A stretch of DNA of 64,000 nt, from the NCBI GenBank assembly GCA_965222115.1, contig CBDCTJ010000007.1:2592001-2656000 (forward strand). The letters run 5' to 3'. Shown here in pieces: positions 7,827 to 11,527 of this stretch (position 1 is the stretch's first letter; each line of letters starts with the position of its first letter). The stretch is from Planctomycetota bacterium (GTDB taxonomy: Bacteria; Planctomycetota; PLA2; JAEUHO01). Position numbers and translations under genes: made by a program. The notes under the pieces are model-generated. The model did no database searches. It saw nothing but the letters and a program-made list of their open reading frames with translations, and had not been told where the DNA came from.

Positions 7827-9242
7827 CTAGTTCTTTTTCTGCCGATACAGCCACACATGCCCCGTCGCGACAGTGTCGACGTGCTTGCTACGGGTGCGGT
7901 AGAACGCTGAATACTCAGTGCGAAGCTTCTTTACGTAGCCCTGAAGCGCCTTTACGCGGGCCTCGATTTTGGCATCGTCGAACTCGGACAAATCCTCGGG
8001 AGGATTATCACTTCCTTTGTCTCCTGGATCTTCACTAGCTGCATGCTCGCCGTCCTCGGCACTCAGTGCGTTGGCCGCAGCGGCTTTTTGGAGCAATTGG
8101 CGAGCGGATTCGACCGTAGATTTGTAGCCGTTGGCCACACGCGACGCGGCATTCAATTCATCGCGCTTGACTTTGAGGGCCGCTTGGAACTTGGCCTCGA
8201 GCTTCTTGGTTTCTTCCAGGCTTACGTCCACCTTAGGGGTGCTAAAGCGCACAAGATCGCCGAGCAAGATATCGAGTGCCCCATCGCCGTCGTAGTCGGT
8301 TACCCAGAGGCGTGTACATGTTGACGGAGGCACCTCCGTATCACGCGGCAATATGCCCGATAAGCGCTTTGCTGGTCCGGGAATCAGTTCTTCGAAATCT
8401 CCAAAGGAGGGCACGCCATCGTCACCAGGATTGTTCTTTGAAATCTGGACACCGCCCGTGGTGCTTCCACTCAACAAATCGAAGTCCCCGTCGCCATCAA
8501 AGTCAACGAGATGGGGGGCCGAGTGCATGCCTTCAATCTTTAGGGGCTCCCCCTTGGCACTCTTCAGCAGGATGGGCTCGCCGGTGAATTTTGGCTCCTT
8601 CTTGGTGCCCACGTTCGTAGCAAGCAAGAACGTGCCCTCGAAGTTGCCAATGACAAAGTCAAGATCGCCGTCCTGATCCCAGTCGATGGCGAACGGTTCG
8701 GTACAGATGTGGCGTGTGCGGGGTGCATTGGGCGTATCGGTGAGGACCAGGTGCCGATCCTCGGCGGTCTTAAGCGCAACGGGTTTTGCATAGTCGCCTT
8801 CGCCTTTGCCGTACAGCACATAGACGGGTGCGTGCATGACCTTGAGCCCCTTGCCTGTGTAGCAGCCGGATACGATATCGAGGTGACCGTCGTCGTTGAG
8901 ATCCACAAACTGTGGGGTTGAACTGGCGCATCACCACACGCCCGGCACTTCGGCGATTTTGTCGCCTACACGAATCCAATCGCCCTGGGCGAATGCCGGG
9001 GCCTCGTTGGACCCGGTGTTTTTGAAGGCGTGCATCTTGCCGGATTTGAATTGTCCGACGACAAGATCCTTCAGATCGTCGCCATCGATGTCCACAAAGG
9101 TGGGGCAGGCGTATCCGGGCGACTCCACCGCGATCGGTTGATCGCCCGCTTTTAGCAGCTCGGGCTCATGAAACTCGGTGGCCCAGGCCGTGCTGCTCAG
9201 AAGGCCGAGCGACGCGGCGACAACGATCGTCTTGATACTCAT
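7827..9242 (-). CDS. Secreted FG-GAP/VCBS-repeat beta-propeller protein with in-frame UGA (candidate selenoprotein)
   Basis: ORFs 8931..9242 and 7827..8906 are in one frame, separated only by TGA (8931-8933): ...EVPGVW*CASSTPQFVDLNDDG...; signal peptide at N-terminus; DxDGDGxxD repeats on both sides of the TGA. Confidence 0.75.
8903..8930 (-). promoter_or_regulatory. Putative bacterial SECIS-like hairpin immediately 3' of in-frame UGA
   Basis: Minus-strand CCACA-GUU-UGUGG stem-loop; loop starts with G about 20 nt after the UGA. Confidence 0.4.
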
Positions 9243-9252
9243 GCGCGAGAGT

Positions 9253-10929
9253 CTACTTCACGGCGTCGTGTGTGTTCAAGCTGCCGATGCTCGCGGGGGA
9301 GAGCCCCAAGAAGTTCGCGTCGAGCGCGCCACTTACGACGGCGAACACTTCATCCTGCATGGGACCGGTTGCGTAAATAAGGGGAGACGAGAGATTGCGA
9401 CCGTTCGCTGCCGCGAATTCATTGGCTTCCGGCACGAATTGGGTGCCAAAGCCGGAGCCAGTTACGACGTTGTGCGGGAGGGAGAGCGCATACAGCGTGC
9501 CGCCCTTCGGCGTGGGTGATGCGAACAGGTCGCCAAAAGTCGTGGCAATCAATGTGCGTCCATCGCCTGAAAGTGCAACGCCAGAGATGTTTCGACCGGG
9601 CACCGATGCGCCGGATGGTTGAACGATGGGAATGCCATTGCCTACGCCGCGTAGGATGGCAAGTTGGTTGGGTGCAATGACCGGCGAGTACAACCCCTTT
9701 AGATTGAGAAGGTAGATTTCGCCCGTGATCTGGGATGGAAAGAAGCCAACATAGTTGCCCGCACCATCTTGGCCAATGGCCGGTGGTTTGGCCGCAAGCG
9801 CCGCCATGCCCATAGCGAACCACCCTTCGCGATAGCCGGATACGGCGTCATAGGCTTCTACGGCGGCAGGCGTGGCGGGAATCAGATTGAAGTTGGCGTC
9901 GGCACCAAGCGCGCCGGCCACGGTCACCAAGAGGCGGGGGGTGGGCGGATTGCCGGGCGGCGATTGTGGGTAGATGACGGAAAGCTCTACCGGATTGTAG
10001 TGAAGGGTTTGAAGGGTGCGCGTGCTACGACCCGCTTCTGGAAATTGCGATACGGGTAGCGGTGCGCCTTGCGTGACGCGAAAACACTGCAAGGTCCCCG
10101 GGTTCCAGATGGCCGGGTAGGTGTTCGTTGCATTTGCCATCGCGACGTAAAGCAAATCCTGTCCGTTTATGCCGGGCACATACGCAATGCCCTCCGCACT
10201 GCTCTGCATGAACGTGCTCGAATTGACGTACGCGCCATTGCTATCCACAAGTTGCGTCGTGGAATCGCTGTAGGGAATCGCCAGGTTGACGACCTGAACG
10301 ATGGCGCCCGTGGACGGATTGAAGACAATGAGATTGGAGAGATTGGGGCGGGTATCGGAGCCGCCGGCATTTACGAGTGCGAATCCCAGCGTGGGGGACG
10401 CCACCGCCAAGTCATTGACGAAGAACCCGAATCCAATTGGACTGGCCAGCGACGCCGGTTGCCCGAGCGCATCCACGAGATCCATATCGCGAATCATGGT
10501 GGGTAGAAAGAGCGCACTGGGTACAAGGCCGGAAGCCGTCATGTCCACAGGGACAATGCGCGCATTTGACGAGTCGATCTCATCCGCGTCAACGGTAAAG
10601 AGTGTGTCGCCGTATCGCTCCAAGTCGCTGGGGTAGGCGCCAAAGTAGGGTACGCGTCCGTGTTGATACGCGTTCTCGTTCCAAACGGGCTGTACCGTGG
10701 GTGCAGGTGGTGGAACCACGCCACCACTTCCATTGCCACCGTTTCCGTTCCCGCCGCCTCCGATGTATGGGCCATCTACGAATGGCGAACCGCCGATCAC
10801 AAACGGCGTTGATCCACCTCCGCCGCCTCCACAAGCGCTCATGAGGCATAAGGCAAGCGCTGCGAAAGCAAATCGTGAAACGGCACGGACCCGACTGCGC
10901 GGTTGTGAGATCGAATAACGTAAAGACAT
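9253..10929 (-). CDS. Lipoprotein, predicted beta-propeller, under cobalamin riboswitch control
   Basis: Lipobox LMSAC followed by Gly-rich linker; beta-rich body with IVFNPSTG, ALSGDGRTL blade-like segments; AAGGA RBS; start may be 10935. Confidence 0.75.
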   Translation of the reverse strand: MSLRYSISQPRSRVRAVSRFAFAALALCLMSACGGGGGGSTPFVIGGSPFVDGPYIGGGGNGNGGNGSGGVVPPPAPTVQPVWNENAYQHGRVPYFGAYPSDLERYGDTLFTVDADEIDSSNARIVPVDMTASGLVPSALFLPTMIRDMDLVDALGQPASLASPIGFGFFVNDLAVASPTLGFALVNAGGSDTRPNLSNLIVFNPSTGAIVQVVNLAIPYSDSTTQLVDSNGAYVNSSTFMQSSAEGIAYVPGINGQDLLYVAMANATNTYPAIWNPGTLQCFRVTQGAPLPVSQFPEAGRSTRTLQTLHYNPVELSVIYPQSPPGNPPTPRLLVTVAGALGADANFNLIPATPAAVEAYDAVSGYREGWFAMGMAALAAKPPAIGQDGAGNYVGFFPSQITGEIYLLNLKGLYSPVIAPNQLAILRGVGNGIPIVQPSGASVPGRNISGVALSGDGRTLIATTFGDLFASPTPKGGTLYALSLPHNVVTGSGFGTQFVPEANEFAAANGRNLSSPLIYATGPMQDEVFAVVSGALDANFLGLSPASIGSLNTHDAVK

Positions 10930-11071
10930 AGCCATCCTTTCGCCGGCATCGAAGTGCGGATGCGCGCAGGATGGAGGGTTCGAAAGCAAGGCCGTGCGCG
11001 TGTCACTGCCAGCCTTGCCGTCGGCCTTCCATTCCTTCGAGCCGGAAGAAAAAGAAACCAAGGAACAGGTG

Positions 11072-11451: not shown

Positions 11452-11527
11452 GGGGCTGTAGCTCAATTGGTAGAGCGCTTGAATGGCATTCAAGAGGTAA
11501 GGGGTTCGATCCCCCTCAGCTCCACCA
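11452..11527 (+). tRNA. tRNA-Ala (GGC)
   Basis: 76 nt cloverleaf GGGGCTGTAGCTCAATTGGTAGAGCG..CTTGA-ATGGCAT-TCAAG..GGTTCGATCC..CAGCTCCACCA; G3:U70 Ala determinant; encoded CCA. Confidence 0.97.

Follow-up and report, generated by a model that had tools for sequence, protein, structure and literature searches.

A probable selenocysteine-decoded, exported FG-GAP β-propeller gene family with a vicinal Sec-Cys pair in Planctomycetota

A gene encoded on the minus strand at positions 9242-7827 of a 64,000-nucleotide stretch of a Planctomycetota genome (GenBank assembly GCA_965222115.1, contig CBDCTJ010000007.1, positions 2,592,001 to 2,656,000 of the forward strand; hereafter the window) contains an in-frame UGA at codon 104. 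The region as a whole is very likely one intact gene, with canonical bacterial selenocysteine (Sec) decoding and an exported β-propeller as its product. With greater confidence still, and to judge from sequence comparison, the UGA itself is predicted to be decoded as Sec. The recoding mechanism is canonical; the novelty lies in the family, whose members are FG-GAP propeller selenoproteins that are exported, divided in two by annotation, and omitted from the consulted portions of the selenoprotein catalogues checked.

Gene structure and reading frame

A single frame of 471 codons was found at this position, closed by a TAG stop (7829-7827) and containing one internal TGA (8933-8931) in the context VPGVW-TGA-CASSTPQFVDLNDDG, with no frameshift across the 471 codons. 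Under translation table 11, this common frame is divided into two open reading frames (ORFs), 9242-8931 (103 aa) and 8906-7827 (359 aa, GTG start), and the GTG start of the latter (8906-8904) falls within the 3' arm of the hairpin described below. A preliminary description of the window had proposed that the two ORFs share a frame across the TGA and that a Cys codon directly follows it, and both statements were borne out (TGC, 8930-8928). Its 'W-U-C' motif was correct for this gene and some subfamilies, whereas other subfamilies carry Gly, Ser, Tyr, or Thr before the Sec-Cys (U-C) dipeptide. The N-terminus, MSIKTIVVAASLGLLSSTAWA/TE, resembles a signal peptide, and comparable hydrophobic N-termini followed by F-E-x-P-V-R-L occurred in the majority of 65 listed homologous genes.

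Conservation of the TGA-Cys column

The read-through protein (P0001) was searched against a database of 5.8 billion proteins, and a sample of 401 genomes of the phylum was searched in six frames with stop codons read through (match cut-off E<=1e-20). Most database matches spanned just 76% of the query and began just after the TGA, because gene callers cut the members of this family in two. Eleven longer database proteins aligned over both parts, with Cys-Cys invariant at positions 104 and 105, and both the 103 aa at the N-terminus and the 359 aa at the C-terminus aligned with full-length homologues.

Family matches were obtained in 101 of the 401 genomes, 97 of which harbored a form having exactly one TGA. 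Nearly all matches spanning residue 104 carried exactly one TGA, and two (in genomes G375 and G344) were free of stops. In all 30 best loci, Trp or Gly followed by TGA-Cys occupied the same column. When these 30 loci were joined by 60 more regions and by 80 named loci that a profile of Cys forms had picked up, the tally at the DNA level came to 141 Sec forms, of which 133 were distinct over 60 nt, plus 7 Cys forms (TGT or TGC). The in-frame stop was always TGA in the 141 genes, never TAA or TAG. The UGA thus stands in an otherwise open, homology-supported frame, and its column is kept in orthologues of other Sec-using organisms. The TGA had been expected to align with Cys in homologues, which was confirmed by the 11 database proteins and the 7 DNA-level loci, all Cys-Cys and not Trp; nor is the TGA unique to this assembly, the same column being found in genes from other genomes.

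Several genomes contained multiple copies of the family (2-4). The named records of Sec forms were mostly metagenome-assembled genomes (MAGs) of Planctomycetota; other MAGs were labelled Verrucomicrobiales, Akkermansiaceae, Lentisphaeraceae, Victivallales, KSB1, Marinifilaceae, Chitinophaga, and WOR-3, labels which can be wrong. At two loci, L045 (G359:C4) and L053 (G397:C1), two family genes lie on the same strand within ~1.5 kb, each with its own TGA and hairpin.

Hairpin downstream of the UGA

The predicted CCACA-GUU-UGUGG hairpin downstream of the UGA is present, with its loop 20 nt from the UGA. It consists of the pairs C8915-G8903, C8914-G8904, A8913-U8905, C8912-G8906, and A8911-U8907, and the loop G8910-U8909-U8908. 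According to the consulted portion of a recent review, the bacterial selenocysteine insertion sequence (SECIS; bSECIS for the bacterial model) has a loop of 3-9 nt with G in position 1 or 2 followed by G or U, a stem of 4-16 bp, a spacing of 16-37 nt, and a minimum free energy (MFE) of <= -7.5 kcal/mol (PMC13188914). As far as that portion describes the model, the GUU loop, 5-bp stem, and 20-nt spacing of this gene all lie within its ranges, and the energy, the last of the four constraints, lies above its limit.

Across the family, the hairpin was compared in an ungapped alignment of 63 columns and 77 Sec forms (A2). The helix core comprised C-G, C-G, A-U, and C-G pairs, to which a U-A pair was added in 64 of the 74 distinct rows. 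The third pair, whose 5' base is the third of a Pro codon and whose 3' base is the second of a Val or Ala codon, was A-U in 53 distinct rows, G-C in 17, G-U in 2, and unpaired in 2. At the level of codons, the 77 Sec forms combined CCA with GTG (55), CCG with GCG (17), CCG with GTG (2, wobble G-U), CCC with GTG (2, mismatch), and CCA with ATG (1); in this last gene, the adjacent pair was also switched on both sides, from C-G to U-A. Codon choice at the stem was strongly skewed relative to the rest of the same 77 genes: the Pro codon was CCA in 56 of 77 genes vs. 8.5% of the 1857 other Pro codons, the Val codon was GTG in 59 of 59 vs. 39.6% elsewhere, and the Ala codon was GCG in 17 of 17 vs. 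40.5% elsewhere.

Paired cells made up 76.9% of the alignment positions compared vs. 73.6% in column shuffles, none of 500 of which reached the observed value, and 22-46% when the 3' partner was slid. Because kinship among sequences can mimic covariation, a protein tree was built with the hairpin-encoded residues masked. On this tree, the two sides of the third pair changed at least 17 and 13 times, respectively. In 11 independent pairs differing on the 5' side, the 3' side changed in the same direction in ~7.4, in the opposite direction in 0, and was unchanged in ~3.6 (G-U intermediates), and a sign test on the independent compensatory changes gave a median p of 0.016.

The geometry was likewise stable: 19-20 nt separated the UGA from the loop in 137 of the 141 Sec forms, the stem was 5-8 bp in most members, and the fold reached -7.5 kcal/mol or lower in 112 of 141 (median -10.8). 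The commonest loops were AGUUC (38), GUU (37), GGU (20), and AGUUG (11). All five core pairs were found in 105 of 124 Sec forms and four of five in the remaining 19; 15 further Sec forms, in which Ser or Leu replaces the Pro, had all five. The 7 Cys forms, in contrast, retained 4, 3, 1, 2, 2, 3, and 3 of the five core pairs, never all five, and in all of them the Val, Ala, or Phe codon ended in C and not in G. Conservation of the amino acids alone therefore does not produce the hairpin, although this control group is small (n = 7). On the strength of these alignments, the hairpin is under selection as RNA.

Two loci from WOR-3-labelled MAGs (L183, L188) have TGA-Cys at the homologous column (SSG-U-CQG...) and different downstream sequence; the family hairpin is absent from its usual place, with 2 of 5 core pairs. 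They may use another SECIS or may not be Sec forms.

Selenocysteine machinery

Genes for Sec decoding were identified in the genome from which the window derives. A tRNA-Sec was detected with 71.6 bits (cut-off 47) and called SeC with anticodon tca by ARAGORN, selB scored 346.6 bits, and selA scored 480.7 bits, being split over the junction of two contig ends (end of C1, start of C7), which therefore probably join. All three exceeded the curated cut-offs, and selA and selB were free of internal stops. A genome-wide reassignment of TGA was also considered and ruled out, as 346 of 1305 long ORFs end in TGA and selA and selB lack internal stops.

Among the 401 genomes, selA was found in 96 of the 97 with a TGA form vs. 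194 of the 304 others. Of the two genomes having only Cys forms, G344 was without a selA match and G375 had one.

Predicted protein architecture

The read-through protein matched Pfam FG-GAP_3 (55.6 bits, cut-off 26.9) and FG-GAP (25.2 bits, cut-off 22.1), and no family was assigned to it in an NCBIfam search. No thioredoxin-like domain was found with Pfam or NCBIfam, the motif being an adjacent U-C and not of the CxxC type, and Pfam at E<=0.1 gave no ASPIC/UnbV match. An AlphaFold2 (AF2) model predicted from a 44-sequence alignment had a mean pLDDT of 88.5 and a pTM of 0.85, with pLDDT dropping to 53-60 in a loop between helices at around residues 401-420. Features of the gene and its predicted product are listed in Table 1.

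Foldseek matches included UmbA4 (9oee_A), a Tc-toxin TcB-type propeller, the Psathyrella velutina lectin (PVL; 2bwm, 2bwr), CRTAC1 (9etn_A), and integrin alpha headpieces; for the FG-GAP propeller chains, E-values were 3e-8 to ~1e-4, TM-scores 0.25-0.38, and identities 14-20%. In the AF2 secondary-structure string, Sec104-Cys105 lies in coil preceding the first strand of blade 2. From the layout of integrin-type propellers, we take this predicted loop to be the 'FG' position on the ligand-binding face. The protein has six Cys-type positions, just two of which, 104 and 105, are invariant (44 of 44 sequences); Cys180 occurs in 27 of 44. Near the C-terminus, G461 and V463 are invariant and W464 nearly invariant in the alignment of full-length Cys-Cys homologues.

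In one homologue (L163:532-1983), a peptidoglycan-binding domain (PG_binding_1, 55.1 bits) is inserted between blades, which fits a periplasmic location. Two others (L034, L046) have an insert of ~110 residues in place of PG_binding_1, that of L034 weakly matching TPR_17.

Table 1. Features of the predicted selenoprotein gene, with positions in the window and the basis of each assignment.
Feature	Position	Strand	Basis
Predicted exported FG-GAP β-propeller selenoprotein gene, 471 residues	7827..9242	-	Single frame; Pfam; full-length Cys-Cys homologues aligned across the TGA; AF2
Putative signal peptide, residues 1-21 (MSIKTIVVAASLGLLSSTAWA, cleavage after AWA)	9180..9242	-	Read from sequence
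UGA codon 104, predicted to be read as selenocysteine	8931..8933	-	TGA in 141 genes, TGT/TGC in 7 at this column; selA co-occurrence
Cys105 (TGC), vicinal partner of Sec104	8928..8930	-	Invariant in 44/44 aligned sequences; follows the TGA in every Sec form found
SECIS-like hairpin CCACA/GUU/UGUGG, encoding Pro-Gln-Phe-Val-Asp	8903..8915	-	20 nt after the UGA; family-wide comparison
Predicted β-propeller domain, residues ~27-340, with five DxDxDG-type loops (D51, D114, D187, D247, D316)	8223..9164	-	AF2; invariant Asp/Gly columns; Foldseek
Predicted long antiparallel helical hairpin, residues 342-452 (helices 342-397 and 423-452)	7887..8219	-	AF2
Predicted C-terminal β-hairpin, residues 455-466, conserved G-x-V-W-L-Y motif	7845..7880	-	AF2 strands 455-460 and 462-466

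Upstream of the gene, a 602-aa ORF with a lipoprotein-like start (…LMSACGGGGGGS…) is encoded on the same strand (9253-11061), ending 10 nt before the ATG of the selenoprotein gene. It had no Pfam match, and it did not recur beside the homologues in the 30 loci whose flanks were compared. The only tRNA of the window, a tRNA-Ala (ggc), was located at 11452-11527 on the plus strand.

Possible function of the Sec-Cys pair

In the proposed mechanism, SelB with Sec-tRNA(Sec) would be recruited by the hairpin within the coding sequence, 20 nt past the UGA, and codon 104 would be read as Sec, yielding a signal-peptide-bearing FG-GAP propeller of 471 residues. Sec104-Cys105 would then cycle between selenolate/thiolate and selenenylsulfide and serve as an extracytoplasmic thiol/selenol-disulfide exchange centre on a ligand-binding propeller. 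A DsbD-type relay would keep the pair reduced; it would act in trans for this protein, with one subclade carrying it as a cis fusion.

A redox-active centre is expected because an invariant vicinal pair alternates between Sec-Cys and Cys-Cys, and we rate the chances of a redox role for the pair as even. In all three genes of the Sec-form subclade carrying KTPVY-U-CIASSPQFVDY/H, a DsbD_N domain (PF11412; cut-off 25 bits) was found C-terminally, after the conserved C-terminal motif (L118:847-2238, 38.9 bits; L119:466-2328, 36.7 bits; L120:838-2145, 23.4 bits), and the match of L120 reaches the last residues held by the locus. DsbD alpha is a periplasmic thiol-disulfide relay domain, and the fusion thus ties the family to periplasmic thiol-disulfide exchange. 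The DsbD_N domain of L119 contains C-x4-C followed by LPP.

Two results count against this assignment of function. No DsbD_N was detected in the Pfam search of P0001 itself, and in the ~1.5 kb flanks of 30 loci no neighbour recurred beyond close relatives, the largest cluster comprising 5 loci.

As the main alternative, an exported, lectin-like propeller could carry Sec-Cys as a site for soft metals or metalloids (e.g., Hg, Cu(I), As, or Cd), with a role in sequestration or sensing and not in catalytic thiol-disulfide exchange; the UGA would still encode Sec. A vicinal Cys-Cys binds Hg in mercuric reductase, which offers a precedent; the nearest solved folds are binding proteins and not enzymes (PVL lectin, integrin alpha, CRTAC1, UmbA4), and the protein is without a thioredoxin-like domain. 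The DsbD_N fusion throughout one subclade, however, suggests electron transfer, and no metal-resistance genes recurred beside the gene in the 30 loci. We therefore consider a metal site unlikely, clearly less so than the readings discussed in the following section.

Alternative readings of the UGA

Several observations weigh against decoding of the UGA as Sec. Within this gene, a 54-nt stretch has an MFE of -9.0 kcal/mol with z = +0.89, 167 of 200 shuffles folding equally well or better, and the 33-nt core (5 bp plus triloop) reaches -5.3 kcal/mol, above the bSECIS limit of -7.5. Since the single-sequence hairpin is indistinguishable from shuffles, the case rests on comparison and not on folding energy. 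An Rfam scan of window positions 8700-9100 (E<=10) returned three chance-level matches and no SECIS family. RNAalifold kept 4 consensus pairs of the family hairpin, with a covariation term of just -0.35 kcal/mol. As for the association with selA, selA was present in 290 of the 401 genomes, and Sec use appears to be very common in the phylum; because selA is common and related genomes are not independent, the Fisher p overstates the association, the direction of which is nonetheless clear. One genome with a TGA form (G063; 90% complete, 410 contigs) had no selA match. The remaining points concern selD.

The preliminary description had called for a genome carrying selA, selB, selC, and selD. The tRNA-Sec, selA, and selB were present, as described above, and selD was also present but is frameshifted in the assembly. 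It was located just downstream of selA (G000:C1:654443-655201), 436 nt from the end of contig C1, and scored 150.6 bits, with five TGA and one TAA inside and several frame changes in tblastn. By comparison, a selD match was obtained in 11 relatives, and in 10 of these the gene scored 332-368 bits and contained a single TGA, so that selD is itself a selenoprotein gene in those genomes; the match in the eleventh, G403, was partial (284.7 bits) and had no internal stop. The selD of the window genome begins ...AAGG-TGA-AAK.

On these data it might be supposed that selD is a pseudogene and the Sec pathway dead, the FG-GAP gene being a recently stranded relic that ends at the UGA as a 103-residue fragment. 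We regard this as very improbable. The assembly was compared with short-read contigs from two sequencing runs of one study; in a run search, the sampled words were present in these two DNA runs at fractions of 0.40 and 0.23, and RNA runs were absent from its results. At the selD locus, each piece of the short-read contigs differed from the assembly by 0-2 substitutions and 1-12 gaps. Over the final ~2.7 kb of C1 (G000:C1:652943-655637; L019), there were 12 listed indel sites and 42 more within 2695 nt. As base identity agrees and the dense differences are 1-2 nt indels near a contig end, long-read consensus error, not gene decay, is indicated, and selD is probably intact in the organism. A further point on the opposing side is that this argument rests on short contigs from runs that are perhaps the assembly's own sample. 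A dead pathway also accords poorly with the intact selA, selB, and tRNA-Sec, and with an FG-GAP gene whose two halves are both open and whose hairpin is retained.

Slightly less probable again is that the UGA acts as a genuine stop that has been conserved, or is leaky, with a near-cognate Trp or Cys tRNA reading it, giving two polypeptides or a low-level fusion free of selenium. Gene callers and public databases do separate the two parts, with most matches starting after the TGA, and the downstream ORF has an in-frame GTG. That GTG, however, lies inside a conserved blade and an arm of the hairpin, and no separate signal peptide precedes the second part. Nor does a stop account for a codon that is TGA in 141 genes without a TAA or TAG and that aligns with Cys in the Cys forms, for an RNA-selected hairpin that stands at SECIS distance and is lost in Cys forms, or for the near confinement of TGA forms to selA genomes.

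That the TGA arose by sequencing error or by recent nonsense mutation in this assembly alone, as local indel errors elsewhere in it might suggest, is effectively refuted by the same TGA in 140 other genes from other genomes. The errors seen are indels and not substitutions, and the frame of this gene is unshifted over 471 codons.

Significance of the family

Beyond the single gene, the family may represent a new large class of extracytoplasmic selenoenzymes, defined by an exported propeller, a vicinal Sec-Cys selenenylsulfide, DsbD-type recharging, and an envelope or extracellular substrate; we put this forward tentatively, as somewhat less than an even prospect. The class is widespread in Planctomycetota and was also found in MAGs labelled Verrucomicrobiota, Lentisphaerota, KSB1, Bacteroidota, and WOR-3. 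Since gene callers split each member, the exported full-length protein is invisible in annotation, and if the proposal is true, a sizeable share of the environmental selenium use by these bacteria goes uncounted. Adding the family, present in 97 of 401 genomes of the phylum, often in multiple copies, and in other phyla, would make the known bacterial selenoproteome noticeably larger. It would contribute an FG-GAP propeller scaffold and an extracytoplasmic location, neither of which occurs in the portions of the selenoprotein reviews that were searched. The tiny hairpin, paired strictly with TGA forms and lost in Cys forms, would also provide a natural test set for a minimal bacterial SECIS.

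Comparison with known systems

Literature searches, judged by titles and the beginnings of abstracts, returned nothing relevant that paired selenoproteins with FG-GAP or dealt with selenoproteins of Planctomycetota, and a search pairing selenocysteine with VCBS returned nothing. Propellers, FG-GAP, VCBS, and Planctomycetes were not encountered in term searches within two reviews (PMC13188914, 2026; PMC9312934, 2022) and the deep-Sep paper (PMC12013277). Planctomycete FG-GAP repeat candidates annotated as two genes split at a TGA have, however, been listed by Kim et al. (2016; Table S9, PMC4807772), with a positive bSECISearch result for three of four candidates, and the same table holds one 'hypothetical' candidate with Cys. 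Those ASPIC/UnbV-FG-GAP (CRTAC1-like) candidates contain an ASPIC/UnbV domain, and their Sec is aligned with Gly in the closest match; the window protein, which has no ASPIC/UnbV match and whose Sec aligns with Cys, is set apart from them by description (PMC4807772). The 'hypothetical (C)' entry could belong to the same family as the window protein. The earlier claim that the protein lies outside the classical selenoprotein families thus stands insofar as neither NCBIfam nor the covered parts of the reviews have an entry for it, but must be qualified by the related FG-GAP/ASPIC candidates in planctomycetes (PMC4807772).

In its decoding, the gene resembles bacterial selenoprotein genes with an in-ORF SECIS, such as the formate dehydrogenase genes of E. 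coli, in which, according to the consulted portion of the review cited above, an in-frame UGA is followed by a stem-loop within the coding sequence and decoding depends on selA, selB, selC, and selD (PMC13188914). It differs in having a minimal 5-bp stem with an energy above -7.5 and in its host, an exported propeller without a thioredoxin-like domain.

With solved FG-GAP propellers, the window protein shares the FG-GAP blades with DxDxDG calcium-type loops, to which a helical hairpin (342-452) is added. We know of no solved FG-GAP propeller with Sec or a conserved vicinal Cys pair. The DsbD alpha domain (PF11412) is fused to the family members L118-L120, whereas the window protein is without it. 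The C-terminal Gly-Cys-Sec-Gly centre of thioredoxin reductase also has adjacent Cys and Sec, which can form an eight-membered selenenylsulfide ring that serves in electron transfer. Here, by contrast, the order is reversed (Sec-Cys), the pair is internal, on a predicted propeller loop and not on a flexible C-terminal tail, and the protein is predicted to be exported and lacks a flavin domain.

Close counterparts are the Cys-Cys homologues (P0054, P0058, P0062, P0077, P0087, P0089, P0012-P0014, and P0018; loci L059, L071, L113-L116, and L125), which have the same architecture, 29-39% full-length identity, and the dipeptide at the same column. In them, Cys stands in place of Sec and the hairpin is not kept.

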